A stretch of DNA of 52,182 nt from a virus (taxonomy: Duplodnaviria > Caudoviricetes): positions 1-52,182 of IMG/VR virus record IMGVR_UViG_3300024262_004288. One strand, given 5' to 3'. A program made the position numbers and the translations under genes. Position 1 is the first letter of the stretch. Each line of letters starts with the position of its first letter. A model generated the notes under the pieces. That model made no database searches, was not told where the DNA came from, and worked only from the letters and a program-made list of their open reading frames with translations. This document shows positions 5,260 through 50,200 of this stretch, in pieces.

Positions 5260-5298
5260 TTGAGTCTCCTAGACTTCTATTATATAACCCTTGATGGA

Positions 5299-6564
5299 AT
5301 GATGATGGACAACACAGGTGTAAGCGCAATTAGTCAGTTATATAAGGAGATATTTCGATATCCCTTACTTAGTAAAACACACATGCGTGTGCTCTTTTCG
5401 GAGTTTGAGGCAATAATCTTTCGGGCTTCCGATGAGCTACTGAATCAAGGTGATTTTGTTGAACATTACATCGCTGATCTACTTGTAGAAGTGTCTGCAG
5501 GAATCACGCGGGGTCGGACATTATTTATCCAACAAAAGGCTAAAGATAAATCCGATGAGCGACTATACGATGACACTCAGATAGCTGCTCTTTCTCGGGG
5601 AATGTGCTGGATGAATTTATTATCTTCAGGCAAGCCATCTATTGCCGCGACTAAACAGTGTCTTGATGATTTGCAATTTACCCGAGCTGTTTATGAGAGT
5701 ATGCTTGAGCTATTTGCCGAAGTAGTTAAGGACTATCCTGAGCAGCTATTGGAAGCTATGGAAATTCGTCAACAGATAGAAGATGGTCTTGAAGAAGAAG
5801 AAAGATATGCAGGCATCAATCAATCCTTGCTATTAACGGAGAGGGCCGCGCATATCAATAGATATGAGCTTTATCAGTTATGCCAATCTATTGATCAGAC
5901 ATTTTTGGAGCTAAAAAGTATTCGAGGGAAAGTCATGCGCCCCTACTTACGCCTGGTCTTCAAAATAGCTCGGGGTCATTCCGCTAGTGAGCAACAAATA
6001 CTGGACAATTTCCAGAATGGCGCAACGGGATTAATGCGCGCTGTTTCATATTTCGACTTTCATAACTATTCCAACTTTTCTTCTTACGCCCGTTGGTGGG
6101 TTAGTCAATCGATCTTGCTATTGTTAAAAGAACAGGCTAACTTCATTCGTCTTCCAATAGGCGTCTGGCAAAACTATAACTGGTTGGAAACAGTTAGGTC
6201 TAAGATCACCGCAGAGCAGGGTGGTTGTTCGACCGGCGTGTTAGCCAAGGAGACTGGTTATTCCATTGACCAGCTTCATTCAATCTATGAAGGTGTTGGA
6301 ACAAGTAATGTTTGTTCCTTAGATTATTTCATAGACCAAGACGAGAAAGTCCCACTTAGTAGTGTCATAGCAGATGAAACTATTAAGCAGCCCGATGAGC
6401 TAGAAGTTCCAATTACACAGTATTTAAGTTTCCTTGATGATGAACTTCGTAAGATAATCTGTTTGCATCATGGACTCTTAGAATACGTACCTCGCGATCC
6501 CTTGTCCAGATTAGATATCTACAAGGAACGCTTACGCCAACGCTGGAGGAGTGATGTCAACTAA
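5299..6564 (+). CDS. sigma70-family RNA polymerase sigma factor
   Basis: Region 2 LRLVFKIAR...QNGATGLMRAVSYFD...FSSYARWWVSQSI, IRLP, region 3.2 SLD; start moved to the ATG at 5299. Confidence 0.85.
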   Translation: MMMDNTGVSAISQLYKEIFRYPLLSKTHMRVLFSEFEAIIFRASDELLNQGDFVEHYIADLLVEVSAGITRGRTLFIQQKAKDKSDERLYDDTQIAALSRGMCWMNLLSSGKPSIAATKQCLDDLQFTRAVYESMLELFAEVVKDYPEQLLEAMEIRQQIEDGLEEEERYAGINQSLLLTERAAHINRYELYQLCQSIDQTFLELKSIRGKVMRPYLRLVFKIARGHSASEQQILDNFQNGATGLMRAVSYFDFHNYSNFSSYARWWVSQSILLLLKEQANFIRLPIGVWQNYNWLETVRSKITAEQGGCSTGVLAKETGYSIDQLHSIYEGVGTSNVCSLDYFIDQDEKVPLSSVIADETIKQPDELEVPITQYLSFLDDELRKIICLHHGLLEYVPRDPLSRLDIYKERLRQRWRSDVN

Positions 6565-7207
6565 CGATGATCCCAGAATGATTATTGCGGATCCTGATGA
6601 TATATTTAACAAACTAAAAGAGTATATAATTGAAGTAGCCGAAGCTGATGGCACAGATGGTTCTAAAATAGCATTGGGAGATGAGAGCAATAATATTACA
6701 TACTCTCGTCCGAATAATCCCAACGGAGACAAAATAATAGAAACGGGTCAGACCTGGAAGGAAAGTCTAGATGAAGATGGCCATTCCTACATTCCTCCTA
6801 AATACAAGCCATTTTATGTTTTGATCAAGGGTATTGCCGCTTGGTTGGCGGATTTTGCCTGGCAGGGCGTTGGCGGTGTATACCATTGCGCTGCATCTAT
6901 TTCGATAGGAAAAGCTGTATATGTTTACAATAATGATAGTATTACTTTGGCTGATGCCTCTGCTGTAGGTACAATGCCAGCTATTGGCATCGTAATTGCT
7001 AAGCCATCCGATAGCAGAGCAATAGTACAGTTCGTGGGAGAGGTGGATTTTGGTACAGCATTGTTTGTGGCCGGTGCCCCTTACTTCTTAGCTAATGTTG
7101 CTGGAGATTTGGCGGCAGCGCCCGGTGTCATCCCCCAACGAGTAGGCACCGCTAAGTCGACATCTGTCTTAATTCTAGATGGTGTGTCTCAGGTTACGAC
7201 GTTCTAA
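6551..7207 (+). CDS. putative virion structural/decoration protein
   Basis: C-terminal GKAVYV..LADAS...AIGIV...GEV...GAPYFL...G.L...P...QRVG.A pattern seen in virion accessory proteins. Confidence 0.45.
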   Translation: MMSTNDDPRMIIADPDDIFNKLKEYIIEVAEADGTDGSKIALGDESNNITYSRPNNPNGDKIIETGQTWKESLDEDGHSYIPPKYKPFYVLIKGIAAWLADFAWQGVGGVYHCAASISIGKAVYVYNNDSITLADASAVGTMPAIGIVIAKPSDSRAIVQFVGEVDFGTALFVAGAPYFLANVAGDLAAAPGVIPQRVGTAKSTSVLILDGVSQVTTF

Positions 7208-8025
7208 TGCCTGAATTGCCAGAAGTACAAACTGTTGTTAATGATCTGCAAAGTCTTAATGGTTTTGTGATCAAGACCGCTAAATTTCCTCGAGAGCAGT
7301 TGAAAAAGCATTGGATAGGTCAACAAGTGCTTGGCCAGAAGCTTCTATCTATTTCTCGTCGAGGGAAGTATATTATCATGAACTTTCAACCGGGAGTTCT
7401 TGCTATACATTTAGGAATGTCTGGTAGGCTTGTATTCAAAGAAATAAAGCATACCAGAGCTAGCTTCGAGTTTGTACATTATAATAAGGGATTAGTCACC
7501 AAGCAGATTGTTTGTTACTTCGATGACATTCGCTGCTTCGGAAGATTATATACTTACGACAATGCCCTGGTTTATCACCAAGCATTTGATATCGGCCCCG
7601 ATGTTTACGAAATCGATGCAGAAGACTTTGTTAAACGCCTTAGGTTACGAAACAACCAAAGTATCAAATGCGCATTACTTGATCAGTCGATAATATCGGG
7701 TTACGGCAATATCTATGCAGCTGAGGCGTGTTTTATGACGGGCGTAGATCCGGCAACTAAGGTAGTTAACTGTTCGGATGAGATTTTGCAGATACTTTAT
7801 CGTTTGAGTAGTTCTATGTTTGATACGGCTATTGCCCTTCGTGGAACTACTTTCGATGCCTATCGTGGGGTTGATGGTCAGCCTGGATTAGCCTTAAATG
7901 CGTTATATGTTTATGGAAAGACCCGCTGCATTTGCTGCGGTAGCCCTATCAATAAGATAAAACAAGAAGGGCGTACTACTTGGTATTGCCCCACTTGTCA
8001 GGCTGGAGATTGTCATGCTAGTTGA
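7207..8025 (+). CDS. mutM: formamidopyrimidine-DNA glycosylase (Fpg)
   Basis: MPELPEV start, RRGKY, HLGMSG, LLDQSIISGYGNIYAAE H2TH, C-terminal C4 finger with GRTTWYCPTCQ. Confidence 0.95.
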   Translation: MPELPEVQTVVNDLQSLNGFVIKTAKFPREQLKKHWIGQQVLGQKLLSISRRGKYIIMNFQPGVLAIHLGMSGRLVFKEIKHTRASFEFVHYNKGLVTKQIVCYFDDIRCFGRLYTYDNALVYHQAFDIGPDVYEIDAEDFVKRLRLRNNQSIKCALLDQSIISGYGNIYAAEACFMTGVDPATKVVNCSDEILQILYRLSSSMFDTAIALRGTTFDAYRGVDGQPGLALNALYVYGKTRCICCGSPINKIKQEGRTTWYCPTCQAGDCHAS

Positions 8026-9752: not shown

Positions 9753-10079
9753 ATGTCTTTGTTGACAGAATCACAGATTTCTCAGATAGATCTAGCGGAA
9801 CTAAAAAATCTGCACTCAAAGATTGTACTATTCTGTGATGAGTCGGAACTTTGCAAAAAGTTCCTAAGCGCAATAGTAGAGTCCAATAATGCAGGTCATC
9901 TTTGGCTGGGCAGGTTTGAGTTATTCTTCCATCTAATCACTTCGGATAACGCGCACTTAATTCCAATCTTGCGCGTTCCTCAAATTAGAGTCTATCAAAA
10001 TGGAGCAGTCATTGGTAAGGTTGAGGGCTTCTGCGGTTACGAAGAAATAAACATATTGCTGGAGAAGCTCAATGAGTAA
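9753..10079 (+). CDS. thioredoxin-fold protein (atypical Cys spacing)
   Basis: VLFCDESELCKKF...RVPQIRVYQNGAVIGKVEG matches thioredoxin topology; no canonical CxxC. Confidence 0.6.
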   Translation: MSLLTESQISQIDLAELKNLHSKIVLFCDESELCKKFLSAIVESNNAGHLWLGRFELFFHLITSDNAHLIPILRVPQIRVYQNGAVIGKVEGFCGYEEINILLEKLNE

Positions 10080-10311
10080 GTTAACGAATAGATTCATTCC
10101 TGGAGAGAAGTTACAGATTTTTGTTCATTCCGGTCTTCCAATTGAAGGAGAGATAACGGATGTAGGTGATGATTTTATTTGTGTAATAAAACCCGATGGC
10201 ACAAATGTGACTATTGAGAAGCATGCTTTAATTTCAACAGTAAGAGATTCTCATGAAGCTTCTGATCGTAGAAAGTCCCACCAAAGCAAAGAAGATAAGC
10301 GGTATTCTTAA
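10072..10311 (+). CDS. Hfq/Sm-like RNA-binding protein
   Basis: LQIFVHSGLPIEGEITDVGDDFICV (Sm1) and TIEKHALISTV (cf. Hfq VYKHAISTV). Confidence 0.65.
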   Translation: MSKLTNRFIPGEKLQIFVHSGLPIEGEITDVGDDFICVIKPDGTNVTIEKHALISTVRDSHEASDRRKSHQSKEDKRYS

Positions 10312-12124
10312 ATACCTCTATCCCAATGATACTTGGGAAGTAGTGGCTTCTATTGGCCATCTAATTGATCTTCCACACGATGAGATAGCCGTTGATGTAG
10401 ATAAGAATTTTAATGCTACGTTTATAGTGACCAATAAACAAGCTCTCGATAAAATCGTTGACAAAGCTAGTAAGGCTACCGAAATTTACTTAGGTGCAGA
10501 TGCAGACGTTGAGGGTGAGGGCATAGCTAGACGTATTCATGACCAATTGCTATCACTAGGCAAGCCTCTACATCGAGTTCGTTTTAACGCGATTACAGCT
10601 AATGTTATCAAAAAGGCAATTGATGCTCCCGAACAACTTGACTGGTCCTTAGCTGAAGCACAGGCTGCTCGTCGAATTTTGGATCGTATTATCGGGTACA
10701 AGATAAGTCCGGTGCTTTGGCACCAGTTGGGTGGTCAGCTATCCGCAGGACGAGTACAGAGTTGTGCCTTAAAGTTGCTAGTTGATCGCACGGTAGCACG
10801 TAGAAATTTCAAGCCCGAAGAATTTTGGCAATTGGCAATTAAACTATCCGACGGCACAGTTGCCTATAGTGATAGATTTGATACTAAAGTAGAAGTCCAA
10901 GTATTACAGGCTAAGTTACCTTCTGCTACATTACAAATCACTGTAACGCCTGATCAAGTTAAACCGGCACCCCCGTTCACCACCGCCGGTTTATTACAAT
11001 TTGCTACAGGCTATCTTCGTAAATCAAGTAAAGAAGTAATGGGACTATGTCAAACACTTTTTCAAAAAGGTGCCATAACGTATCATCGGACAGAATCTAT
11101 CGGCCTAGCTCCCTACTTTATTCAAGAAGCTCGCAATTATATTGATACCCAACTTGGCAAGGCTTTGCTAAATCCCAAGCAACGCTTTTATCCTTCGAAG
11201 GGTGCACATGAGGCCATTCGTCCTACGAAGGCAGATGTTACAGCCACACAATTACAAGGTGTTTCTAAAGATGGCGAACAATTATACCGCGCTATTTGGG
11301 CACGCTCTTTAGCAACACAAGCTATCCCCGCAGATATCGAACGTCAGCATGCCGTTATTACTGCTAGTGATGGTCAGATTCTTGCTAAAGCGTCTGGCGT
11401 TAAACTTGTGACTCCTGGGTGGTACCAAGTTAGTCTAAATCTATTTACACCAAAATATCACGCAATTGATCCGAATGCTAATATTGACTCCAATAGCATT
11501 GTTTCTAGTTGGACAGAACCGCCCCAACGATATTCTGAATCCCGATTAATTCGTAAGCTAGAAAAAGAAGGAGTAGGGCGTCCATCTACTTACGCTACGA
11601 TCGTTAGTTCACTTTTTAAGCATAGTTACGTATTATACAAAAAAGGTGGCATGGACTCGACTGCTCGTGGAGAGCTACTTACAATGTTCATGCAAAGTTG
11701 CTTTCCTGATCTACTACAGATGAACTTCACCGCAGAAATGGAAGAGTGGCTAGATCGTTTAGCTAGTGGTGAAGATAGTGTTTTAAGTAGAACTATCTTA
11801 CTACAGCGATATTGGGAATGGTTACTTCCTCTACTAAACTCCGCAGCCACACATATTATATCAACTGCAGATGTTTGCTCCTGTGGAAAAGACCTGCAAG
11901 TCTTTGTTTCTAGAAAGGGTGCGCCCTACTTAAAGTGCTCAACTTGTGGAACGTTTCATGGATTCGATGTAGATGAGCAAGGGGACATCCGAATATTCAA
12001 GCCAGCTAAATTAACAGGCACTTGCTCCAAGTGTGGAGCAGACGATTTATACTCGGCCCAAAGCCAATATGGTCGTTACATTCGTTGCCACTCTTGCAAC
12101 ACGGCACACAAGGATAATCAATGA
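10253..12124 (+). CDS. topA: DNA topoisomerase I (type IA)
   Basis: LLIVESPTKAK, ASIGH, DADVEGE, SAGRVQ, catalytic ITYHRT, AHEAIRPT, GRPSTYA, C-terminal zinc ribbons. Confidence 0.95.
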   Translation: MKLLIVESPTKAKKISGILKYLYPNDTWEVVASIGHLIDLPHDEIAVDVDKNFNATFIVTNKQALDKIVDKASKATEIYLGADADVEGEGIARRIHDQLLSLGKPLHRVRFNAITANVIKKAIDAPEQLDWSLAEAQAARRILDRIIGYKISPVLWHQLGGQLSAGRVQSCALKLLVDRTVARRNFKPEEFWQLAIKLSDGTVAYSDRFDTKVEVQVLQAKLPSATLQITVTPDQVKPAPPFTTAGLLQFATGYLRKSSKEVMGLCQTLFQKGAITYHRTESIGLAPYFIQEARNYIDTQLGKALLNPKQRFYPSKGAHEAIRPTKADVTATQLQGVSKDGEQLYRAIWARSLATQAIPADIERQHAVITASDGQILAKASGVKLVTPGWYQVSLNLFTPKYHAIDPNANIDSNSIVSSWTEPPQRYSESRLIRKLEKEGVGRPSTYATIVSSLFKHSYVLYKKGGMDSTARGELLTMFMQSCFPDLLQMNFTAEMEEWLDRLASGEDSVLSRTILLQRYWEWLLPLLNSAATHIISTADVCSCGKDLQVFVSRKGAPYLKCSTCGTFHGFDVDEQGDIRIFKPAKLTGTCSKCGADDLYSAQSQYGRYIRCHSCNTAHKDNQ

Positions 12125-13350
12125 AAAACTATAGGGCGGTAGCTAAGGCTACAGAATTCAATTTCGAGGACGCGGTTAACGCAATAGGCAAAGACTTGGA
12201 TATGGATCCAGTATCCTTAGATAGAAAGTCTTTCGTCGATGGTTCCATTAGCTTAGATAGTTTGACACTAGATTTGATTATGGGAGGAGGAATAGCTCCA
12301 CGACGCTGGACTACCTTCTTCGGATTTGAGGGCAGCGGGAAGTCGACAGCGGCTTTCCATGGAATGCGTTCTGCGGTCAATATGAAGATCCCTTGTTTAT
12401 TCTTTGATTATGAGGGAGCCGATCCCCTATATCTATCCCGTATTGGGCTTGATATTAAGAATCCCTTGCTAAAGATTTTCCATCCAACTACTGGTGAGCA
12501 GACGTATCGCTTTATTAAACGTTTTGCATCGTTACTTCCAGAACAGCATTCTGGTCAGGTGCAAGCAGCTTTCTTCATTGATTCCTTCACGGCCATGCTA
12601 CCAGAGGCTATTGATGAAAATGATGAATTTGGTCAGCGCGCAGTTGCAGCCTCAATGCATTCTTCGAAGATTCCCCTTATCCGTAGCATGCTAAACCGCA
12701 AGTCCTGTGCCCTAGTAGGAACCAATCAGTTGCGACTTTCTCCACAGGCCATGTTTGGTAGCCCTGAATATGAGCCTGGTGGTGAAGCCCTCAAGTTCTA
12801 TAGTGACGTACGCCTTCGCATGCAGATGATTAGTCCTCGAACCGTGGGTGCTACTCCCATGACAGAGGCTGGTAAAACCAAGCTGGAAGAAGAGCCCTGC
12901 GTCGTGGGTAAGGGAGTTGATCGCTATACGTACTCAACCGCACGTACGGTCAAGAATAAAGCGTTTTCGCCTTTCCGAACAAGTTTCCTTCGGTTCTGGA
13001 CGGAGCATCGAGGAATGCCTGGCCATGGTATTGACCCTGTTTATGATACCTATCAGTTCTTGGTAGAAACTGGACAGGCAGTATACAAACGTGGTCGCAT
13101 GAATATTAGTATTCAAGGTTTCAATGATAAATCTTTTACGTGGCTAGAATTCAAGAAATTAATCATTGATGACGAAGATGAGGTGTTAAATAACGAAGGA
13201 TTGACCCTTCGTGAAGTTTGTCGTTCGCAAATTGCTGATAGCACCGCCTTTGAGATGTTCTTTAATGTTTCTGGTGGGCTGGGACTTGTCAGCAATGAAA
13301 AGGAAACTGGAAGAGATGACGAAGATGGAAGTTTCGCTCCGGAGGAATAA
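12121..13350 (+). CDS. recA: RecA/UvsX recombinase
   Basis: GFEGSGKST Walker A, IDS, TNQLR, MFGSPE..PGGEALKFYSDVRL, VKNK. Confidence 0.92.
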   Translation: MKNYRAVAKATEFNFEDAVNAIGKDLDMDPVSLDRKSFVDGSISLDSLTLDLIMGGGIAPRRWTTFFGFEGSGKSTAAFHGMRSAVNMKIPCLFFDYEGADPLYLSRIGLDIKNPLLKIFHPTTGEQTYRFIKRFASLLPEQHSGQVQAAFFIDSFTAMLPEAIDENDEFGQRAVAASMHSSKIPLIRSMLNRKSCALVGTNQLRLSPQAMFGSPEYEPGGEALKFYSDVRLRMQMISPRTVGATPMTEAGKTKLEEEPCVVGKGVDRYTYSTARTVKNKAFSPFRTSFLRFWTEHRGMPGHGIDPVYDTYQFLVETGQAVYKRGRMNISIQGFNDKSFTWLEFKKLIIDDEDEVLNNEGLTLREVCRSQIADSTAFEMFFNVSGGLGLVSNEKETGRDDEDGSFAPEE

Positions 13351-13625
13351 TGAGTAAGAAAGATGAAGTTCAGCACTCGATAGGAACCATTGGAGATAGA
13401 GTTCCTATTAACTCGGCAGCAGCTCATCGTATGCACGCCATATACAACTACCAGGTTGGAACCTTTAGATCAGTAAAGGGAGGATTGGACGCTACTCTTT
13501 ATCAGTCACGTGAAGGAATCAGATACGTCGTAGGTACCTTGCAACTGCGTAATCAGATTGCAGGGTCTTTTGATCGCTCACATTATTCTATGCTTGATGT
13601 GCCTATTCCTGAACAATTTCAATAG
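13350..13625 (+). CDS. hypothetical protein
   Basis: TAATG-coupled to recA, GGAGG SD. Confidence 0.65.
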   Translation: MSKKDEVQHSIGTIGDRVPINSAAAHRMHAIYNYQVGTFRSVKGGLDATLYQSREGIRYVVGTLQLRNQIAGSFDRSHYSMLDVPIPEQFQ

Positions 13626-13633
13626 GAAAAGAT

Positions 13634-14410
13634 ATGTCTAACTCTGTAGTAATGTTGCTATCTGGTGGAATAGATTCCACCGTTGTTGCTACCAATCTAA
13701 AGCTTGCACATGCTAAAATCCATGCGGTATTTCTTCAGCAGGAGTTGGTGCGGCATAGGCAACAGACAGAGCACATTGTTCAGTATCTTAATGAAAATTT
13801 TGAGGGCCCCGATATCGAATTTCATGCAGCCGATGTACAATCGTTACTACATATGCTCAAGTTACCAGATACAGGCTATGTACCTGGGTATCAGTTATTC
13901 AATCATTTGGTAGCTTTGGCTATGGCCGATAAATACGATACTACATTCATCTACACGGGAGAAATCCATAATGCAGTATTTGTCAGTAATAGTACGGAGG
14001 AAGATGCCGACCATCATATGTATTTAGACTTCCTAGGCAAGGAAGATGATACATTCTACGAAGCTCATTATAGTACACGAGACAAAATGGCAGAGGCATA
14101 TTCCTACGCCTATAGCGGTCATACCTGGGGCTATCGTTTTATTGATCCTTTGCTAGGATTAACAAAGTCGCAGGTTACTAAACTGGGAGTACATTTAGGT
14201 GCTCCCTTACAATTATCGGTAACCTGTCGTGCTCCCGATATGGATGAATGGTCATCCGATGACGTCTTTCATTGTGGTCGTAGTAACTGTTACTTCTGCT
14301 GTCATCGCCGCTTGGGATATCTTCGTGCAGAAATTGATGATTCAGTCAAGTATCATGTTATCGAGGATCTTCCGCCAGATATTCAGGCATTAGTTAATAT
14401 TAAGGATTGA
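13634..14410 (+). CDS. queC: divergent QueC-like PP-loop ATPase (7-cyano-7-deazaguanine synthase family)
   Basis: LLSGGIDSTV PP-loop, GYVP, PLLGLTKSQV..LG, SVTC...HCG..NCYFCCHR Zn site. Confidence 0.75.
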   Translation: MSNSVVMLLSGGIDSTVVATNLKLAHAKIHAVFLQQELVRHRQQTEHIVQYLNENFEGPDIEFHAADVQSLLHMLKLPDTGYVPGYQLFNHLVALAMADKYDTTFIYTGEIHNAVFVSNSTEEDADHHMYLDFLGKEDDTFYEAHYSTRDKMAEAYSYAYSGHTWGYRFIDPLLGLTKSQVTKLGVHLGAPLQLSVTCRAPDMDEWSSDDVFHCGRSNCYFCCHRRLGYLRAEIDDSVKYHVIEDLPPDIQALVNIKD

Positions 14411-14411
14411 T

Positions 14412-15353
14412 GTGTTCAAGCTATTAGATAATCTGGATTTAATTTGGGCAATGAATGATGAATTGTCACATGCCTGTTGGCAAAACTGTCCTTTGCTGGG
14501 ATGGCTCTTTGTTAAGACGGGCCTTTGTGAAATACAGCCGATGGTAGATATTATCAGCTTTCTTTACAAGCATCCAGAGTCTGCTCCAGAGGGACTTTTA
14601 GTTAACAAGAGTTTTATGTTACCTCGGACGGGCGATCGCCAGAAAATTAGTAGGGCACTATTGCAAACGGCACTTCCTATAGAATGCATCTCAGATCCAC
14701 AACTCATTGCATCGTGGCCTTTTGCTACCCAGCTACAAGATTTTGAACCGATGCTTGAGACTAAAAAACTGCTAAACTTGCCTGGTGGTAAATTAGCTAA
14801 AGAACGTAATGGGATCAAACGTTGGTCGACAAAGTGGATTACGACTATTGCTGAGTATGATATAGACAAAGCGATTGTTATGTATGATCAATGGGTCTCC
14901 GATATGAAAGGTAAGGTAGAAGCTAATTCTATTGTCTTCCAGCGTTATCTTTTATCCAATCTTCCCCAGATCTCTACTATCTATCCCATTACCCTAGCTT
15001 GCTTAGAAAGAGATGGCGAGTATCTTTCGGTGTCTATTGGAGCCAAAGTTAGTATCTCTACTTGGACTTCGTTAGTACGGATTAGTCGCCGTGGTAAGGA
15101 CTTTCAGTATGCCTCCGACGCTGCCTTTGTCCAGATAGCCCGGCAATCCACTCAACAGTTCGAAGCAGATGGTTGGATGGGGTATTATGATGAAGAGATA
15201 TTCGGAGGATTAATTCGTTATAAAAAGAAGTTTTTATCGATAGGAAGGGCTAAGCCCTTGTATGCACTGTCTTCTACTCCATTGAAGAAGAATAGTGTTT
15301 TAATCAATCCGGCAGTTGAAAAATCCGGTATTTGGGAGATTGAAAATGGCTAA
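14412..15353 (+). CDS. DUF2156/FemABX-like GNAT-fold transferase (putatively aminoacyl-tRNA-dependent)
   Basis: LLNLPGGKLAKERNGIKRW (cf. L.G.K...KRN.INRF) and GGLIRYKKKF (cf. GL..yK..f). Confidence 0.6.
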   Translation: MFKLLDNLDLIWAMNDELSHACWQNCPLLGWLFVKTGLCEIQPMVDIISFLYKHPESAPEGLLVNKSFMLPRTGDRQKISRALLQTALPIECISDPQLIASWPFATQLQDFEPMLETKKLLNLPGGKLAKERNGIKRWSTKWITTIAEYDIDKAIVMYDQWVSDMKGKVEANSIVFQRYLLSNLPQISTIYPITLACLERDGEYLSVSIGAKVSISTWTSLVRISRRGKDFQYASDAAFVQIARQSTQQFEADGWMGYYDEEIFGGLIRYKKKFLSIGRAKPLYALSSTPLKKNSVLINPAVEKSGIWEIENG

Positions 15354-15627
15354 GTGGGCAAAAGTTGGCGTCCTTTGGAATCGTCCTAGTGGATACTCGG
15401 GATCGATTAGTTTAGGTATTCTGGGTGAGATCAATATCCAGATCAAGCCCAATTCAGACAAGCGCAACGACAATGAGCCAGACTATAATATTATTGCCCT
15501 GCGAGGGGAACTTCCACTAAATCAGCTTGGTCGTGATACTAGCATCTCTATTCGAGAGTTAACTCCTTGTGCAGGCAAAGGCACCATCAAGGCCCACGAA
15601 GACTGGAGGAAAACAGATGCGGAGTAA
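15346..15627 (+). CDS. DUF736-like small protein
   Basis: VGVLW..SGYSGSI...IQIKPNSDKRNDNEPDYNI; start ATG at 15346. Confidence 0.55.
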   Translation: MAKWAKVGVLWNRPSGYSGSISLGILGEINIQIKPNSDKRNDNEPDYNIIALRGELPLNQLGRDTSISIRELTPCAGKGTIKAHEDWRKTDAE

Positions 15628-16210
15628 GCTTCTAGAATTATATCGTAAGCTATATAAAGCAACCTCTGATATTACTATTGGTTGTGGTAGCTACGGTTGT
15701 GGTAGACTTTGCGAAGAAGGGCCCGATGCCTTTGACCTATTAAAGCCAGGAGAGTGTTGGGTTCCTTGGGAGTTCTATCTTCTACCATGGGAGCACGAAC
15801 TTCTAGCAGAGGTAGCAGAAGAGAAAGAAACACGATTTTCTGTTGTTAATATTGGCGGCATGCCCATTGCTACTGTAAAGTTTGATGATTATTGTCCTTA
15901 CTACACTTTGGGCGCAGGACTGTGCCAAATATTTGACGAGCGGCCTATGATTTGTCGTAGTTATCCTTTGTGGCCGCATATCAACTTAACTAAACGCTCT
16001 GTATCGTTTTCACAAATTGACTTCTGTCCTGCAAAACTGGCACCAGAGTTTATCAGTCGTTACACAGATATTTACAATCAATTAATTCCGGAAGTGTCTG
16101 AGACATACTGGCGTTTCCACAACGTTTTGGGAGAAGGATCGCTTGTTCCCCTCTCTACCAAACATACCAGTGACTGGTATACCCGATTCAAGAACCGGAA
16201 GAAGAAATGA
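15617..16210 (+). CDS. YkgJ-family cysteine-cluster protein
   Basis: C..GCG.LC...CPYY...CQIFDERPMICRSYP; GGAGG SD before ATG 15617. Confidence 0.8.
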   Translation: MRSKLLELYRKLYKATSDITIGCGSYGCGRLCEEGPDAFDLLKPGECWVPWEFYLLPWEHELLAEVAEEKETRFSVVNIGGMPIATVKFDDYCPYYTLGAGLCQIFDERPMICRSYPLWPHINLTKRSVSFSQIDFCPAKLAPEFISRYTDIYNQLIPEVSETYWRFHNVLGEGSLVPLSTKHTSDWYTRFKNRKKK

Positions 16211-16827
16211 AAAAGATTTACTTTGTCCGGCATGCTGAATGCGAAAGTGATATTCAGCATATTCTAGCTGGTCAATATAATTACGTACTGACTCCTCGTG
16301 GACATCAGCAGGCTGCAAAGTTTGCTACTAGTATTCCCAAGGATATGCGGGCACTTACTAGTCCATTAGCGCGGGCTACTGAAACCGCGTCTCCTTATAG
16401 GGATAGCGCAAGAGGACAGTTACTGGAACATAATATGGATCTTCGTGAGCGTAGTTGGGGTCTGTTTGATGGTAAGACACGCTCCTCCTTCACTGATGCT
16501 GAGAAAGTGTTGATGAAGAGACTTCGTGATCCATTGGATGATCTGCAGGGATCGATCACTAGTCGTGCCCTAGAAGTCGAAGAGCGATCCGCTGTTTTCA
16601 ATAGAATGTTTGCTATACTAAAATCATTGACAACGGGGCAAGTTGAAAATACTGTCTGTTTTTCACATGGACATGCTATTGCAACTTTAGTCGAAGGAAT
16701 GACAGGACTGGCAGTTCCTTTGATTGGTCCTTGCGGCTATGTAATATTCACATTTAGTGATTATGGGGAATGTTACGGATATGAGGTTTTTACAAACCGC
16801 GGATCTTCATCTGGGAAAGTCGCGTAA
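16207..16827 (+). CDS. histidine phosphatase (phosphoglycerate mutase family)
   Basis: FVRHAE, LTPRGHQQA, SPLARATETA, LRERSWG, FSHG. Confidence 0.88.
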   Translation: MKKIYFVRHAECESDIQHILAGQYNYVLTPRGHQQAAKFATSIPKDMRALTSPLARATETASPYRDSARGQLLEHNMDLRERSWGLFDGKTRSSFTDAEKVLMKRLRDPLDDLQGSITSRALEVEERSAVFNRMFAILKSLTTGQVENTVCFSHGHAIATLVEGMTGLAVPLIGPCGYVIFTFSDYGECYGYEVFTNRGSSSGKVA

Positions 16828-17779
16828 GCTCCCCGATTACTTACCTAGGCAACAGCAAATGTTGCGTCAGATCTTTAGTCTTGCCAAACAGGAGCAAGTT
16901 GATGCTCTGGTAATCGCTGGGGATATTTACGATCGAACAGATTTACGAGATGAAGAACGAAATATCTTTCTGGAAATCTTACTGCAGTATGATGGTAAAT
17001 TTCCCATCTTAATTATCAATGGTAACCATTGTATGCATGGACATGAACAGTTGACTGCTCTACATTTTCTAAAGACCCTAGAGAATCATGACAAGTTTAA
17101 GTCTGTGCATATCGCAGAATTAGAGCCACGCATAGTATCTATTATGGGAGTAGATTTTGCTTTATTGCCTTATCGATACTATAATAGCCAAACTTTTGCT
17201 ACTGCGGCTAGGTCCTTGGTTGCACAAGCCACCGAAGATAAGATTGTGGTAGTTTGTCACGAGTGTATCAATGGGGCATCCACCGATACTGGATGGAAAG
17301 CTTCACATGGCTTCATTGAGTTGCCCAATATACCAGAAGTTACTTTCTGGGCGTTAGGCGATATTCATAAGCAGCAAGCCGTGCGCAAGAATGCCCACTA
17401 TCCAGGTAGCCCTATACAGCATACCTTCGGAGATGCCCCAACCGGTAAAGGAGTATTGTTAGTCGATACCGATCATCCTACCACGATTCAAAAGATTCCT
17501 TTGCTAGGAATCAAGCCCTTATTGACACTAACTGAAGTGCCAGATGAATGGCCAGATGCATATATTCGTATCGTGGGAATTAAAGAAGTACCGCGAGATC
17601 TACCTGATGATGTAATTTACACATCTCCACAAGAACAGGAGCCTATTGATATCGCTGTGCAGGATGATATCCTTCAAGGCTTGATTGAAGTCTTAGCGGA
17701 TCGTGGGCTAAAAGGTCAGCATCAGGCCGAGGCTATTGAATTAGCTACAGGCTTACTTAAAAGTATCAACGTTGACTAG
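16781..17779 (+). CDS. sbcD: SbcD/Mre11 nuclease
   Basis: TADLHLG, AGDIYD, NGNH, ALGDIH, YPGSP; start ATG 16781. Confidence 0.9.
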   Translation: MRFLQTADLHLGKSRKLPDYLPRQQQMLRQIFSLAKQEQVDALVIAGDIYDRTDLRDEERNIFLEILLQYDGKFPILIINGNHCMHGHEQLTALHFLKTLENHDKFKSVHIAELEPRIVSIMGVDFALLPYRYYNSQTFATAARSLVAQATEDKIVVVCHECINGASTDTGWKASHGFIELPNIPEVTFWALGDIHKQQAVRKNAHYPGSPIQHTFGDAPTGKGVLLVDTDHPTTIQKIPLLGIKPLLTLTEVPDEWPDAYIRIVGIKEVPRDLPDDVIYTSPQEQEPIDIAVQDDILQGLIEVLADRGLKGQHQAEAIELATGLLKSINVD

Positions 17780-17790
17780 TTGGAGAATTC

Positions 17791-18915
17791 ATGGAAAGTT
17801 ATGAACCTATGGCTTTGCGGTACCGACCGCAAACTATTGACCAGCTCATTGGGCAACCTACTGTTGCTAAGTCCTTGCGTGGAATGGTTAGTAGCCAGCG
17901 CATAACAAGAACGTTACTAATTCATGGCCCATTCGGTTCGGGAAAGACTACAACTGCTCGGCTAATCGCAAGATATGTCAATTGTGAAGCGAGGGAGCCC
18001 TCCGGAGATCCTTGTGGAGTTTGTGCTTCGTGCACCACAATGGCAGATGGTAACCATCCCGATGTTGTAGAGCTAAATGCGGCAGATGCTCGTGGCATTG
18101 ATACGATCCGAGAGATTATTGAGCACGCTAACTTCTCCCCGCGGCATGTCTACCGTTGCTATATACTCGACGAAGTACATCAGCTTACTCCGCAAGCGGT
18201 ACAAGCGATGCTTAAAATTTTAGAGGAACCACCCAGCAAGACTATCTTTATGCTAGTCACAACTGAGCCGGGGAGGCTACCTTTTACTATTCGTAGCCGC
18301 TGCGTCCAGCTTAAACTAATGCCTGTCGAGCCCGAAGTTACAGCAAAGCATTTGGGAAACATCTGTACTGCCGAAGGGATCGAGGGCGTTGATTCCGAAA
18401 TTCTTTTAGAGATAGCCAGGGCCGTTAATGGTCATCCACGCGATGCTTTGTCTGCACTAGAGCAAGTCATTCATCACCTAGATACACTGGCAGATAAGTC
18501 TCAGATAAAGGCAATGCTACCACAAGTGATTGAAGAAGTGGTAGGCATACCTCCTGAGGTACAGGTTATGAAATACCTTATCTCTATTCTACGAGGAAGA
18601 GAAGGATTGGCCTTACGGATGATTCGTGGTATCAAAAATCCCGATGCCTTTCTTCACCAAAGTATTAAGTTAATTCAGCAAGTTCTTTTTGATAGTGTTT
18701 CTACGACATTATCCGATCAATATTACCGTAAGTTTTTCGACGAACTTGATAAGAAAGAAGTAATTGCTTCTATCAGTGTATTAGCCAAATTACTTGAGCT
18801 TCATATGTCTTCGTATGAAAAAGCTAAGACATACGTCTTAGAAGCCGAGGATCTATTGATTCTTACGGCAGTTAAAAGTACTGAGATTGTTAAGGCGCAC
18901 TCTAGTGAATTGTGA
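17791..18915 (+). CDS. dnaX: DNA polymerase III clamp loader gamma/tau
   Basis: LRYRPQT, GPFGSGKTT, PCGVCASC, ELNAAD, LDEVH, LKILEEPP, TIRSRC. Confidence 0.93.
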   Translation: MESYEPMALRYRPQTIDQLIGQPTVAKSLRGMVSSQRITRTLLIHGPFGSGKTTTARLIARYVNCEAREPSGDPCGVCASCTTMADGNHPDVVELNAADARGIDTIREIIEHANFSPRHVYRCYILDEVHQLTPQAVQAMLKILEEPPSKTIFMLVTTEPGRLPFTIRSRCVQLKLMPVEPEVTAKHLGNICTAEGIEGVDSEILLEIARAVNGHPRDALSALEQVIHHLDTLADKSQIKAMLPQVIEEVVGIPPEVQVMKYLISILRGREGLALRMIRGIKNPDAFLHQSIKLIQQVLFDSVSTTLSDQYYRKFFDELDKKEVIASISVLAKLLELHMSSYEKAKTYVLEAEDLLILTAVKSTEIVKAHSSEL

Positions 18916-19180
18916 TAATTGTCCAGCACCTTGCTGCGGTGAGGGATATCTTTCCTTACTAGATCATAAAGCTAGGATCGGCGGCCAATACGAAATCATG
19001 CCCGTTAGACCCGAGTTCGGTTTGTACGCCTTAAAGCAAATTGATGGTAAATGTGTTTACTATAACGAGGGTTGTACTATTTACGAGGAGCGCCCAAGAC
19101 ACTGTCGTGAGTATGATTGTCGTTTAGATACGAGAAAGCCAACTACTAGTAAATACTGGCCATTTGATGATAACGTTTGA
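18905..19180 (+). CDS. small YkgJ-family cysteine-cluster protein
   Basis: CDNCPAPCC...CVYY..GCTIYEERPRHCREYDC; GTG start 18905. Confidence 0.75.
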   Translation: MNCDNCPAPCCGEGYLSLLDHKARIGGQYEIMPVRPEFGLYALKQIDGKCVYYNEGCTIYEERPRHCREYDCRLDTRKPTTSKYWPFDDNV

Positions 19181-21551
19181 GAAAATATCATTTCGAAATG
19201 CTCTATCCTGGTTACAGGGAGATATTCAATTAGCTGATCAGGGTCTAGTTCTAATTTGTGGGGAGAACCGCGACGCTAGTCGTAATCAAGGTAGCTCTAA
19301 CGGCGCAGGTAAAAGCTCTATCTTTGAATTATTGACACATGTATTCTATCATCAGACTAGTAAGGGGATTAAACTCGAAGCTGTTGTCAACGCAATGGTC
19401 AACGAAGATTGCGAAATTGCCGTTGATTTTAGTGTAGGTTCTAAGAAATGTAGGATTGAGCAATTTCAGGCTTCTAGAAAGCATGGTAACAAAACATTCA
19501 TTAAAGAGGACAACAAATCTGTTACTCCCCATACTCGCACCGATGCCAAGAAGTATATTCCCGATTTATTGGGATTATCCTTAGAAGAATTTCTTGGTGT
19601 TATTTACTTAAGTCAGGGATCCATTCATACCTTGATCGAGGGAACGGGTGGACTTCGGATGGATTATATCGGTCGTCTATTTCAGCTATATAGATATGAT
19701 CGCTTAGTTGAAGAGCTAAAAAACATCAGAGATACAATGAGTCCTCGCATTAATGTGTTAGAGGTAGCTGCTATCAAAGCAAGGCATATTAATGATAGAC
19801 TTGCCAATATTCCTAAGACAACACATTTAGCGGAACAAATAGATTTGATTGAAAAGGGAATTCAGCAAGCAGCAAGCCAGAAGCATGACTGGTCACGACA
19901 TGTCATTGATTTACGCATGCTTATTGAACAATTAAAAGAAAGAGAGTGTATTGAAAGTCAGGGTGCCTCTGCAGATGCCGCAGAGCAGTTGATTCGCAAA
20001 GAACAGCGCAAGGCAACGCTAGATAGTTCTATTGCTGCCATGGAACAAATGCGAACGCAGACAGTTGAAAGAAAATCTCTGGTTGCTAAGCTGGGTGATT
20101 TGAATGATATTGATCTAACGGAAATAACAAGTGAGTTAGCTGCTAGTCGTGCAATCAAAGAAGAATTGCCTCGTAAGATAACCAAAGCCAATGAAAGAGC
20201 CCGACTGGAACAGGCTGTTAGATCTGCGATAGTTGAAGCTTCTTTCGACGCTTGTGACTCTACTACATTGACTAATCTAGAGCAGACTGTAGAGAAACTA
20301 ACTAAGGAATTGGCAGGATCTCGCACCGATCTTAAACGCGATAAAGAGACTTTGCAGAATCTATCGGCAATCGATTCAACGACTTGTCCCACGTGCTTGC
20401 AAAGTGTATCTCCAGAATATCTGGGCCCCCAGCGAACCCATTATCAAGATCATGTTTCTCAGCTAGAAAAAGATGTCGCTATAGCTAAGTCTAATCTTGA
20501 TCAATTAAAGCAGGATTTGGGGATAGCCCGTCAAGTTAACAGTTGGCAAAATCAAATGCTGGGTCTACCAGCAGAAAGTCCTTTGGAACTACAGCAACAG
20601 TTTTCTTCTCTTGAAAGAAGAATAAAAGAACTGTCCGAGCAGTCTAGTGTGGCTAAGGATATTCATCTAATTAAAAGTCGCTTAGAGGTTCTACCTAATG
20701 AAGAGGTTTCTACAATTGATGAAGATCTAACTCTACTCAGAAAAAAGATTACAATTCTACAAGATGCTATCCATCGTTTAAATGCGGAGAAGTCTAGACA
20801 CGATCTCCTACAAAGATTACCCGCCGGTTCCATTAGTAGTTGCAATGATGATCTGCAGCGAGTAGAATCTTTACTTAGAGAGATCGAAAGTCTTTTGCAT
20901 GAAGCTGCTCAGATATCTGCTGCACAGAAGAGTTCATTGGAAGAGCGAACAAGGCTAGAGGACGAGCTTACTCCACTGGAAACGGATCTATCGGAATTAA
21001 AATCATTGCAACATAAGCACTACCTTTGCCAGGAGTTAATTCGAGCAATAGGAGTACTTAAACAAAAGCGCACCCGTGGAATCTTATCGGCTATTCAGAG
21101 TATCTTGCCCGCATATACGCAAATGATGTTTTCTGAACCAGGACTATCTTTTATGCTGGCAGATGATCTTGAAGAAAATTCCATTGATATTCTTGTTAAG
21201 AGATATACAAAGGTTAAAGGCAAACTAATTCCTCACACATTTCCTATTAAGAGACTAAGTGGGGGAGAGAAAAAACGCTTGGGTGTAGCTTTACTGTTTA
21301 CCTTGCAGCGAGTTCTTAGTCCAGGTAAGCAATCTAACATCTTAGTATTGGATGAAGCTGATACTGGATTAGATACCTTGGGTCGAGAAGCATTTATTCA
21401 GGCGGTACGAAGTTTGACAGGATATAGCAGTGTGTTCGTTATCACTCAAACACCAGAGATGGCTGAGGATCATTACTTCGATCAAACATGGACAATCATC
21501 AAGGAAAATGGAACTAGTAGATTGAAAATCAATAGGCCGGCTATCCTGTAA
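19164..21551 (+). CDS. sbcC: SbcC/Rad50 SMC-family ATPase
   Basis: NGAGKSS Walker A, Q-loop LSQG, coiled coils, CPTC zinc hook, LSGGE signature, VLDEAD. Confidence 0.92.
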   Translation: MMITFEKISFRNALSWLQGDIQLADQGLVLICGENRDASRNQGSSNGAGKSSIFELLTHVFYHQTSKGIKLEAVVNAMVNEDCEIAVDFSVGSKKCRIEQFQASRKHGNKTFIKEDNKSVTPHTRTDAKKYIPDLLGLSLEEFLGVIYLSQGSIHTLIEGTGGLRMDYIGRLFQLYRYDRLVEELKNIRDTMSPRINVLEVAAIKARHINDRLANIPKTTHLAEQIDLIEKGIQQAASQKHDWSRHVIDLRMLIEQLKERECIESQGASADAAEQLIRKEQRKATLDSSIAAMEQMRTQTVERKSLVAKLGDLNDIDLTEITSELAASRAIKEELPRKITKANERARLEQAVRSAIVEASFDACDSTTLTNLEQTVEKLTKELAGSRTDLKRDKETLQNLSAIDSTTCPTCLQSVSPEYLGPQRTHYQDHVSQLEKDVAIAKSNLDQLKQDLGIARQVNSWQNQMLGLPAESPLELQQQFSSLERRIKELSEQSSVAKDIHLIKSRLEVLPNEEVSTIDEDLTLLRKKITILQDAIHRLNAEKSRHDLLQRLPAGSISSCNDDLQRVESLLREIESLLHEAAQISAAQKSSLEERTRLEDELTPLETDLSELKSLQHKHYLCQELIRAIGVLKQKRTRGILSAIQSILPAYTQMMFSEPGLSFMLADDLEENSIDILVKRYTKVKGKLIPHTFPIKRLSGGEKKRLGVALLFTLQRVLSPGKQSNILVLDEADTGLDTLGREAFIQAVRSLTGYSSVFVITQTPEMAEDHYFDQTWTIIKENGTSRLKINRPAIL

Positions 21552-25702: not shown

Positions 25703-25963
25703 TTGAACGACACATCTGAAAAGGAGATTACTATAACTCTACGAGGAAATAAAATAGCAATCGACAAGATTCTAATACTAGTTGGACTTATGGAAGTTGC
25801 TGGTAATCGTACGATTGATATTGCATTATGTTCTCTAAATACTGATAAGCTAGTTAGTGATTTACCACCAGCCTTATCTGATATAGAAATGGAACTTATT
25901 CTTAATAATCAGAGAGTTATTCTTTACGATAAAAGAGGGCAGGTCCTTCTGCTGCCAGGATGA
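25703..25963 (+). CDS. hypothetical protein
   Basis: GAGGAG SD + TTG start; ATGA overlap with the ligase. Confidence 0.6.
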   Translation: MNDTSEKEITITLRGNKIAIDKILILVGLMEVAGNRTIDIALCSLNTDKLVSDLPPALSDIEMELILNNQRVILYDKRGQVLLLPG

Positions 25964-26916
25964 CTTTCCAATTTAGGGGCTGTCAGTTAGCCCGAAAGTA
26001 TACTCCATCAGATGCTATTCCCTTTCCGGTATTTGTTGAACCAAAGATTGATGGGGGCCGGTTAATCATAGCCATTGATAAGCATAAGCCAGAAGGATTT
26101 AGTCGAAGTGGTAATCCCAAACCGGGACTACTTCCTATTCTCGAACCTTTAACTGCAATTAATGGTTGGGTATTTGATTCCGAAGGATGGCGCAATAGTT
26201 GGGGCGAAACAATGAGTGTTTTCCAACGAGCCAATCCCAATCCTCAGCATCTAAAAGAGTTCCAGGTTTTCGTTTTTGATTTGATTCCAATTGCTACTTA
26301 TCCTCGGGGCGCTTGGGGAACAGATCAACGGCAACGAAAGAGTCTTCTCAAGAATGCCTTATCGCGTTTAGGTACGATGCAATTGGTCATCGATCTGGAT
26401 GCTGGAGAAGTTAATACAATTCCTTTAGGTTCTAGGGTAAGGGCGCCTAACATAGTTTACGTCAATCATGTTGAGGTAAATAACCATCGTGATATTCGAG
26501 ATGCTTACTTACTTTTCAGAGAAAAGGGTTTTGAGGGTGCGATGATTAAAGCACCACAAGCTGGTTACATGTTAGATCGTGTAGGAGCTTGGAGAAAGGT
26601 CAAACCTTTCAAAATGATCTCAGGTATAATAACTCGCTGTGTCGAGGGTGACGGCAAGAATGTTGGTCGCTTAGGATCTTTTAGGGCTCGTCTTCCCGAA
26701 GGTGGAGAATGTGGAGTGGGAACTTTCTTGATGGGTTGCTTAAAGAATGCTGAGGGCACTCCCTTAAATGATGCGGACGTTCGACAATACTTTTGGGATC
26801 GTCGAGCTATGCTAATAGGAAAAAGAATCAACTTCAAAGTTCAAGACGATAATACCCCTGTTAGTGAAGCAAGGCACCCTATCTTTGTGTCTATCGAGGA
26901 GGATAATGGCCAATAA
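25960..26916 (+). CDS. ATP-dependent DNA ligase, minimal form
   Basis: EPKIDG, FSRSG, FDSE, VFDL, EGAMIK, WRKVK, OB domain GRLGS..GVGT..RHPIF. Confidence 0.85.
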   Translation: MTFQFRGCQLARKYTPSDAIPFPVFVEPKIDGGRLIIAIDKHKPEGFSRSGNPKPGLLPILEPLTAINGWVFDSEGWRNSWGETMSVFQRANPNPQHLKEFQVFVFDLIPIATYPRGAWGTDQRQRKSLLKNALSRLGTMQLVIDLDAGEVNTIPLGSRVRAPNIVYVNHVEVNNHRDIRDAYLLFREKGFEGAMIKAPQAGYMLDRVGAWRKVKPFKMISGIITRCVEGDGKNVGRLGSFRARLPEGGECGVGTFLMGCLKNAEGTPLNDADVRQYFWDRRAMLIGKRINFKVQDDNTPVSEARHPIFVSIEEDNGQ

Positions 26917-33249: not shown

Positions 33250-33276
33250 GCCTCGCCAGGAATTGCCTGGCGGGGC
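33250..33276 (+). terminator. GC-rich hairpin after the 32309 gene
   Basis: GCCTCGCCAGG-AATTG-CCTGGCGGGGC. Confidence 0.5.
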
Positions 33277-33289
33277 ACCCCATCAACCT

Positions 33290-40505: not shown

Positions 40506-40802
40506 ATGAGTTCTAACGAGATGACCCTAGAAGACGTTATTCATGGAATTATTTGTAAATTAGTAGACAAGCCCGAAGAAGTTAAAGTCGCAATTACAGC
40601 ATCTAAGTATTCCGGTATCGTGGAAATTGAAGTTGATCCCGAAGATGTCGGAAAAGTGATTGGCAAGCTTGGGCATACGGCTGGAGCCTTGCGGCATCTA
40701 ATTTCCGCTTTTGGCGGTTGCCAGAAGAAGCGACTTATTATGGAATTAGTCAACGAGAGGAAAGATGGAACCACTGTTCGGAACGACGACTATCGCAACT
40801 AA
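40506..40802 (+). CDS. khpA: KH-domain RNA-binding protein (KhpA/YlqC family)
   Basis: LVDKPEEVKV...VDPEDVGKVIGKLGHTAGALR (GxxG). Confidence 0.88.
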   Translation: MSSNEMTLEDVIHGIICKLVDKPEEVKVAITASKYSGIVEIEVDPEDVGKVIGKLGHTAGALRHLISAFGGCQKKRLIMELVNERKDGTTVRNDDYRN

Positions 40803-50188: not shown

Positions 50189-50200
50189 CTCTTACCAAAT

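Follow-up and report, generated by a model that had tools for sequence, protein, structure and literature searches.

Two adjacent genes of a tailed phage, one related to the preQ0 synthase QueC and the other resembling enzymes that take amino acids from aminoacyl-tRNA, raise the question of whether the two act together and, if so, on what. They lie at positions 13634–15353 of IMG/VR virus record IMGVR_UViG_3300024262_004288 (Duplodnaviria; Caudoviricetes), and the whole stretch of 52,182 bases analysed here is referred to as the window. The record is classed as linear and has a CheckV completeness of about 13%; it is a piece of a large phage genome, 87% of which is unseen. The original prediction, made from the sequence alone, had read the pair as a divergent QueC followed by a DUF2156/FemABX-like transferase, and had suggested that they append an amino acid to a deazaguanine base in the phage DNA. 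The results given below place the first protein in the QueC family with a rebuilt substrate side and the second close to DUF2156. We tentatively favour a joint role for the two, with DNA as an improbable destination of their product.

The QueC-like protein and its substrate pocket

The product of the first gene matches the Pfam QueC family (PF06508) with 47.1 bits (E value 2.7e-12; cut-off 22), residues 5–231 being colinear with positions 2–208 of a model of 210, and it also matches phrog_1550, designated "QueC-like" (E value 2.6e-19). With the same Pfam model a canonical phage QueC scores 194 bits. Against TIGR00364, the NCBIfam equivalog for QueC, the protein obtains 27.9 bits, where the cut-off is 150.3, and the match is confined to the PP-loop (residues 6–36). 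A phmmer search of the PDB returned no QueC among the matches listed at an E value of up to 1.

The sequence motifs were examined in an alignment with four bacterial QueC proteins and one phage QueC. The PP-loop, SGGIDS, is retained at residues 10–15, as are four C-terminal cysteines (C198, C214, C219, and C222) that are invariant across the five members of the clade described below, so that the ATP loop and zinc site named in the original prediction are both present. The overall length is also that of canonical QueC. The cysteine spacing, however, is C-x15-C-x4-C-x2-C rather than the C-x8-C-x2-C-x2-C of the canonical enzymes, and the tyrosine that follows the first cysteine is lost (C-R instead of C-Y). 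The remaining signature has been replaced, as the original prediction had noted for the YGQRH, YPDC, and VPxRN motifs: F(D/N)Y(G/N/S)Q(R/K)H reads FLQQELVRH, YVP(F/N)RN reads YVPGYQ, and SGYPDC is missing altogether. In addition, the protein has lost a stretch of about 20 residues, the LT..I.V loop, and has gained about 35 residues as an insert. The acidic nature ascribed to this insert is borne out by residues 109–160, which include 12 Asp or Glu against 3 Lys or Arg, in a protein whose net charge is -17.

Mutagenesis of the E. coli enzyme, as reported in a 2026 survey of the QueC family, shows that each of Y35, R99, Y131, and Y189 is required for queuosine to form (PMC13329287). Because all four of these positions are substituted in the phage protein, it is not expected to be a preQ0 synthase. 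The absence of YxQxHxxE, VPxRN, and YPDC, together with the sub-cut-off score against TIGR00364, likewise led us to reject that function (EC 6.3.4.20). As judged from its sequence, the protein is a QueC-family PP-loop, zinc-binding ATP-pyrophosphatase without any of the substrate-side motifs of a preQ0 synthase.

Relatives of the protein are few. Among 5.8 billion protein clusters only four were found besides the protein itself, namely P0004, with 73% identity, and P0005, P0006, and P0007, with 32–33%. All five have in common the motifs Y(V/I)(P/A)GY(Q/R)L and YTGE as well as most of the insert, and 37 alignment columns are invariant. Since both the altered motifs and the insert are conserved in the four relatives, their sequences argue for a selected new pocket rather than for decay. 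The protein had no tblastn match in 50,697 phage records, and profile scans with the clade alignment over viral contigs and genome contigs revealed no related locus. The same alignment recovered a single locus from metagenome contigs, which was rejected as a member of the clade, being a canonical QueC (194 bits). That locus, at 9989–11382 (+) of a 123-kb contig, is of some interest in itself: the canonical QueC is followed directly by a separate gene for a class-II glutamine amidotransferase, an arrangement that looks like a split Gat-QueC, and the two sit between a UvsX-like gene and one for a DnaB-like helicase (identities read from the translations).

QueC-family enzymes have been repurposed in bacterial defence from small-molecule synthesis to protein-nucleobase ligation (PMC13329287). 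A precedent is QatC, which is built on the QueC scaffold with ATP loop and cysteine cluster, has had its substrate motifs all replaced, and still ligates a carboxy-deazaguanine to a protein amine (PMC13329287). A remodelled pocket alone therefore does not exclude a deazaguanine substrate. Identity with QatC or with Cap9, the other defence enzyme of this type, is nevertheless rejected both by score and by neighbours. The present protein is phage-borne and has 258 amino acids, against about 400 in QatC and about 185 in Cap9; the QatC-specific motifs and extensions are not seen in it; the NCBIfam model of QatC (NF041925) gives 28 bits where the cut-off is 280; and the PADLOC models of QatC (25.2 bits) and QueC (28.9 bits) match only in part. 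None of PF07693, PF01026, and PF18144 was found among the scanned neighbours of the gene. The family survey covers the ten largest clusters and, in its available text, describes no viral clade with the signature reported here (PMC13329287). The protein would represent a phage-borne clade whose pocket has been rebuilt in a third manner.

The 313-residue protein and the DUF2156 family

The second gene encodes a protein of 313 amino acids that finds no match in Pfam (hmmscan, E value up to 0.1), PHROG, NCBIfam, or PADLOC, nor in the sequences of the PDB when searched singly or as a two-row profile. A single homologue, P0002 (56% identity), was found in about 15 billion proteins. In a word-indexed search only 2 of 786 candidates reached an E value of 0.001 or less, and these were the protein itself and P0002. 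The two-row profile made from this pair likewise recovered nobody new (2 of 3002 candidates at an E value of up to 10), and an exhaustive search of 1.84 billion representatives gave only the protein itself and P0008. The latter was rejected as spurious, being a repeat protein of 1408 amino acids matched in 10 short stretches. A tblastn search of the 50,697 phage records and a scan of viral contigs for related loci were both negative.

An indication of family came from a language-model atlas, in which 30 neighbours of the protein belong to named clusters: 22 of these fall in the PF09924 (DUF2156) set, one carries both PF09924 and PF13480, two carry PF13480, and five have no common family. Among the matches listed, the PF09924 neighbours have a score of 0.95 with 189–195 shared features. 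Fifty-nine PF09924 domains were assembled for comparison, comprising 29 of 32 loci from one bacterial phylum (three fragments were dropped) and 30 from a second phylum, and proteins longer than 400 amino acids were trimmed to their C-terminal 340–345 residues. With the two-sequence alignment of the protein and P0002 as the query, hhalign matched the 59 domains with a probability of 94.4% (P value 8.7e-8; score 53.8), and the 29 domains of the first phylum alone with a probability of 65% (P value 5.9e-5; score 38.3). Under permissive settings the match to the 59 domains is colinear and extends over both halves of the protein (residues 15–285 against 23–295). Forty control queries, one reversed and 39 column-shuffled, scored no more than 19.8 against the same 59 domains, and 30 controls scored no more than 19.6 against the first-phylum alignment. 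A hidden Markov model built from the 59 domains gives the protein 21.6 bits and P0002 26.7 bits, at sequence identities of only 9–16% between the protein and the domains.

The same query was compared with three other families. The probabilities were 0.3% for FemAB (PF02388, 29 proteins; P value 0.23; score 16.6), 0.0% for Acetyltransf_6 (22 proteins; P value 0.84; score 10.7), and 0.1% for QueC (5 proteins; P value 0.61; score 12.1). Thus, of the double assignment made in the original prediction, the DUF2156 part, i.e., the C-terminal domain of MprF, stood, while membership in FemABX was rejected on the P value of 0.23 against 8.7e-8.

The transferase motifs that had been noticed in this gene are present. 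Both LPGGKLAKERNGIKRW and GGLIRYKKKF occur in the protein and are conserved in P0002, and they align with the L..L.G.K....R...N.F and GLR..K..Y.P consensus of the 59 DUF2156 domains. Conserved columns were defined as the 25 with a consensus of at least 60% in these domains; the protein matches them at G74, L123, G125, R132, W161, G266, L267, and K271, and R132, W161, G266, L267, and K271 fit columns that are conserved in 83–98% of the domains, the R132 column being 83% Arg. The segment KLAKERNGIKR (residues 126–136) is the counterpart of the G.K....R motif of the family and places K127, K130, R132, K136, and R137 at a predicted helix, whose position leans on the alignment-driven model described below. 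In aminoacyl-tRNA transferases a helix with positive charge, located between the two GNAT domains, is a common feature and binds the tRNA at its acceptor stem (PMC7334510, PMC6103681).

Further in keeping with the original prediction, no membrane segment was detected, the maximum Kyte-Doolittle mean over 19 residues being 1.17. The length of about 300 amino acids is that of the DUF2156 domain, either as the synthase domain of MprF or as a free-standing protein (PDB: 2HQY, 5VRV); it is in the absence of a Pfam match, of a flippase or membrane domain, and of more than two known members, as well as in being encoded by a phage, that the protein departs from the family. As its sequence would have it, the protein is a very divergent, soluble tandem GNAT of DUF2156 type, which retains the basic helix between its domains and GL..K near the C-terminus. 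The DUF2156 (LPG_synthase_C) members that have been studied are aminoacyl-tRNA transferases. To our knowledge, the family is known in no other capacity, and the acceptors are lipids, sterols, or antibiotic intermediates.

When AlphaFold2 was given a mixed alignment that included the 59 DUF2156 domains, the model reached a mean local confidence (pLDDT) of 73.6 and a predicted template-modelling score (pTM) of 0.75. In the PDB it is best matched by 2HQY, a free-standing protein without an assigned function, by 5VRV, which is labelled DUF2156, by the aminoacyl-tRNA-dependent peptide synthases Sbb17 and Sba18, by the synthase domains of MprF, and by FemX, and among the weaker matches are tandem GNATs that use acyl-CoA, e.g., 2wpw, VipF, and N-myristoyltransferases. 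As the alignment behind the model contained DUF2156 sequences, these matches are not independent and serve only as a consistency check. Judging by this model, aminoacylation of soluble amines, and not of lipids alone, occurs among the solved relatives. Sbb17 and Sba18 (PDB: 9WQW–9WQY), which stand at ranks 9–13, are soluble tandem GNATs of antibiotic pathways that carry out such a reaction.

One pathway or two neighbours

The explanation that we tentatively favour, although it falls somewhat short of probable, is that the two genes form a coupled module, in which an ATP-dependent ligase derived from QueC would work with an aminoacyl-tRNA transferase on a soluble acceptor. The QueC-like enzyme would not make preQ0. 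Instead, it would use ATP to adenylate a carboxylate, possibly that of 7-carboxy-7-deazaguanine (CDG), as QatC and Cap9 do, and would join the adenylated carboxylate to some amine that is not ammonia. The DUF2156-like enzyme would move an amino acid from aminoacyl-tRNA to a soluble, non-lipid acceptor. Both would most likely operate in one pathway leading to an amino-acid-bearing adduct, the final target of which might be a free metabolite, a nucleotide, DNA, or a protein. By analogy, given the remodelled pocket and the precedent of QatC and Cap9, it is plausible that the QueC-like protein works as an amide ligase with a new acceptor, which the original prediction had put forward as an alternative. 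For the second step there is a functional parallel in antibiotic pathways, where VlmA, PacB, DhpH/K, and Orf11 are listed as aminoacyl-tRNA-dependent enzymes, and where enzymes of this kind deliver the amino acid of a tRNA to the amine or hydroxyl of a soluble acceptor (PMC6103681). Unlike those peptide synthases, to which it has no detectable sequence similarity, the phage gene is not accompanied by a biosynthetic cluster of that type. If the two proteins do work together, phages could use charged tRNA for the chemistry of nucleobases or metabolites, which would bear on DNA hypermodification, counter-defence, and enzyme discovery. No description of a combination of QueC-like and DUF2156-like proteins was found in the literature searched, nor was any relevant paper linking DUF2156 with phages.

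The evidence for a unit lies in the junction and in the rarity of its two genes. The QueC-like gene ends with TGA at 14408–14410 and the next gene starts with GTG at 14412, leaving the single base that the original prediction had pointed out, and this spacing is compatible with coupled translation. P0002 aligns with the 313-residue protein from residue 1, which supports the GTG start. Both genes are extremely rare, the nearest homologue of each being a single metagenomic protein. A complex prediction for the two proteins gave a score of 0.00 and was counted neither for nor against an interaction.

A number of observations weigh against this proposal, and some of them concern the enzymes themselves. 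The PF09924 model of Pfam gives the 313-residue protein no score; in a six-frame search of the window with an E value of up to 10 its gene was not matched (gathering threshold 27.5 bits). The E, H, N, and P of the family consensus are changed at positions 211, 223, 257, and 276, and since several family-conserved positions thus differ, catalysis is not assured. When AlphaFold2 was run on the single sequence, pLDDT was 29.6, and the fold matches of the only usable model are, as noted, dependent on the alignment. QueD and QueE, which make CDG, have no match in the 52-kb window (PF01242 and PF04055, E value up to 1). Others concern the link between the genes, for which adjacency is the sole basis. 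Between 12121 and 21551 every gene runs in the same direction and overlaps or abuts its neighbour, so that a spacing of one base is nothing special here, and a scan for promoters and terminators found nothing above the shuffled background that would set off an operon. Finally, the three QueC-like relatives with 32–33% identity have no detectable DUF2156-like counterpart.

Two of these points, the packing and the lack of operon signals, also speak for the main rival explanation, which we consider unlikely but by no means far-fetched, namely that the two enzymes have separate jobs and merely lie next to each other within a densely packed module for replication and repair. The QueC-like ligase might then act on tRNA, a nucleotide, or a protein, and the DUF2156-like enzyme on a host lipid, a cell-wall precursor, or some other metabolite. 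Genes for UvsX, SbcCD, and a clamp loader do adjoin the pair, the neighbourhood is packed throughout, and no operon boundaries are detectable. The distribution of the second gene points in the same direction. In 22 distantly related large-phage records chosen by a UvsX-like gene with 28–35% identity, of which 17 are at least 90% complete, the two-row profile found no relative of the 313-residue protein (0 of 22). A 61-row profile matched one of 23 records, this being the window itself as the positive control, and the PF06508 matches in the 22 records cover only the PP-loop and lie in other proteins. Canonical DUF2156 genes occur in just 7 and 8 of the 50,697 GenBank phage records, depending on which of two queries is used, and three GenBank "Bacteriophage sp." records that carry one have no QueC or QueC-like gene within the 14–20 kb examined. 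From the empty comparison set and from this scarcity of phage DUF2156 genes, with no QueC beside them, the pair is not a general phage theme. On the other side of the balance, the two genes are the rarest of their neighbourhood, with nearest homologues only in metagenomic fragments, and their spacing allows for coupled translation. The lack of a membrane domain and of a flippase partner argues against a role of the DUF2156-like protein on lipids. Even if the two genes are uncoupled, the second one indicates that phages have very divergent soluble DUF2156 enzymes, which every standard annotation model misses.

The hypothesis from which this work started, i.e., that the pair makes an aminoacylated 7-deazaguanine which a DpdA-type transglycosylase puts into the phage DNA as a new tRNA-dependent base hypermodification, we regard as improbable. 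A QueC-family gene and FolE do occur in the same genome, as they do in phage 7-deazaguanine systems, where DpdA, FolE, QueD, QueE, and QueC come together with tailoring enzymes; genes for DNA metabolism surround the pair; and the unseen 87% of the genome leaves room for the missing steps. Phage QueC and FolE are otherwise tied to deazaguanine modification of DNA, and of the eight phage deazaguanine derivatives listed, dCDG and dPreQ1 would offer a carboxyl or an amine handle (10.1101/2023.04.13.536721). None of the eight bears an amino acid, at least in the available text of that source (10.1101/2023.04.13.536721), in agreement with the statement in the original prediction that no aminoacylated form is known. 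On the other hand, DpdA, the signature of 7-deazaguanine DNA (10.1101/2023.04.13.536721), is not recognisable. Searches of the 52,182 bases with PF01702 (TGT/DpdA), PF01242 (QueD), and PF04055 (radical SAM, QueE) gave no match with an E value of up to 1, although divergent DpdA subfamilies may escape PF01702. As a control, the three models matched 14, 10, and 14 of 14 genomes, respectively. Nor did the larger open reading frames (ORFs) of the window that lack an assignment yield a transglycosylase when scanned with PHROG and Pfam. Because the record is only about 13% complete, the absence of DpdA, QueD, and QueE from the window neither supports nor refutes modification of the DNA.

All four residues on which QueC depends for its deazaguanine chemistry have been replaced, and, unlike the QueC of a phage 7-deazaguanine system, the protein lacks the catalytic signature. 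In contrast to the setting of a canonical QueC, neither queD nor queE is near the QueC-like gene. FolE is the only recognisable gene of the deazaguanine and pterin pathways in the window and lies 27 kb downstream of the pair among unrelated genes, adjoining a 5'-3' exonuclease and unassigned ORFs without QueD or QueE as a neighbour. An insert of about 40 residues interrupts its Pfam match, and the metal-site motif reads MCPHHLLP. Moreover, no tRNA-dependent modification of a nucleic-acid base was found in the literature searched. The presence of an aminoacyl-deazaguanine in DNA is, in short, a reasonable guess without direct support. In its wider form, in which the pair would be the core of a tRNA-dependent nucleobase hypermodification and an amino-acid-bearing 7-deazaguanine or other base adduct would be installed in DNA by a transglycosylase encoded elsewhere, we consider the idea very improbable. 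If true, phage deazaguanines would gain a ninth class, and this would be the first nucleic-acid base modification with an amino acid supplied by aminoacyl-tRNA.

The DUF2156 likeness might also be real while the protein itself is a non-catalytic or CoA-dependent GNAT derivative that involves no tRNA. The family positions changed at four sites, the silence of the PF09924 model, and the acyl-CoA tandem GNATs among the weaker fold matches would all fit, but we consider this very unlikely, in that both known members retain the basic helix and GL..K, where the family is most conserved, and the profile match is specific to DUF2156. Least likely of all is a protein deazaguanylation in the manner of Cap9 and QatC, in which CDG would be ligated to the N-terminus of a phage protein or of a hijacked host defence protein, with the DUF2156-like protein as target or accessory: remodelled-pocket QueC-family enzymes do perform this reaction in QatABCD and type IV CBASS (PMC13329287), and the weak partial QatC matches fall in the cysteine-cluster region, but their scores are far under the cut-off, the Pfam-scanned neighbourhood contains no QatA, QatD, or CD-NTase, and the DUF2156-like protein and P0002 show no conservation over residues 2–5 and lack an N-terminal glycine.

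The gene neighbourhood

By the ORF list of the window, the plus strand carries nearly all genes. Pfam and PHROG scans of the neighbours place the pair inside a block of replication and repair genes (Table 1).

Table 1. Genes of the replication and repair block around the pair, and the distant FolE gene.
Feature	Positions	Strand	Basis
Topoisomerase I	10253–12124	+	Pfam/PHROG scans
UvsX/RecA-like recombinase	12121–13350	+	Pfam/PHROG scans
ORF of 91 amino acids, function unassigned	13350–13625	+	ORF list
Divergent QueC-family PP-loop/Zn enzyme, 258 amino acids	13634–14410	+	Pfam QueC, phrog_1550
Soluble DUF2156 (LPG_synthase_C)-like tandem-GNAT protein, 313 amino acids; putative aminoacyl-tRNA transferase	14412–15353	+	hhalign
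Small ORF, 93 amino acids, weak DUF736 match	15346–15627	+	Pfam, sequence reading
YkgJ-type CxxCxxCC Cys-cluster protein	15617–16210	+	PF03692, 25.5 bits
Histidine phosphatase superfamily (branch 1), His_Phos_1	16207–16827	+	PF00300, 82.9 bits
SbcD-like nuclease	16757–17779	+	Pfam/PHROG scans
Clamp-loader subunit	17791–18915	+	Pfam/PHROG scans
SbcC-like ATPase	19164–21551	+	Pfam/PHROG scans
GTP cyclohydrolase I (FolE) with internal insert	41980–42789	+	PF01227, 127.6 bits, in two stretches

The ORF of 91 amino acids upstream of the pair overlaps the stop of the UvsX/RecA-like gene with its start and ends 8 nucleotides 5' of the QueC-like gene; it has no match in Pfam, PHROG, or PADLOC. Downstream, the YkgJ-type protein and the histidine phosphatase that the original prediction had placed behind the transferase gene are both there, as seen from their matches to PF03692 and His_Phos_1, but the DUF736-like ORF of 93 amino acids precedes the former. 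This ORF begins with ATG at 15346 behind the Shine-Dalgarno sequence GGGAGA, has 8 nucleotides in common with the end of the transferase-like gene and 11 with the likely beginning of the YkgJ-like gene, and scores 21.3 bits against Pfam DUF736 (cut-off 22.1; E value 2.6e-4; scored in a form of 103 amino acids). For the YkgJ-like gene, the sequence makes ATG at 15617, behind GGAGGA, the most likely start rather than GTG at 15569. Two paralogues of it, also matching PF03692 and on the plus strand, lie at 18887–19180 (31.6 bits) and 33263–33886 (20.2 bits). With three YkgJ-type genes in 52 kb, the copy beside the pair is not specific evidence for a shared pathway. The histidine phosphatase gene overlaps the YkgJ-like stop by 4 nucleotides, and its product gives 52 bits against the ribazole phosphatase model TIGR03162, under the cut-off of 162.9.

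Several other features of the window were recorded. A complete Fpg/Nei-type formamidopyrimidine-DNA glycosylase, with N-terminal, H2TH, and zinc-finger domains, is encoded at 7207–8025 (+) and might matter if the phage DNA carries modified purines. Two genes with ATP-dependent DNA-ligase domains lie on the plus strand at 25960–26916 and 33777–35195, the latter with N-terminal and OB domains as well. A protein of 434 amino acids with sigma-70 region 2 is encoded at 5260–6564 (+) and a small KH-domain protein of the KhpA/KhpB type at 40506–40802 (+). The only tRNA genes of the window are two adjacent tRNA-Thr genes on the plus strand, at 50116–50189 and 50201–50275, with the anticodons TGT and CGT.

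The phage is present in more than one study. One public DNA run contains the whole stretch from 12000 to 18000 and may represent the sample from which the record came. Identical proteins are also encoded on longer contigs, one of them 85 kb, and the longest record read in a public run has 100 kb. An RNA library from a different study contains nine identical contigs of 150–240 nucleotides, some of them inside both genes of the pair, which are not evidence of transcription. A third run, again of DNA, contains one identical piece of 186 nucleotides.

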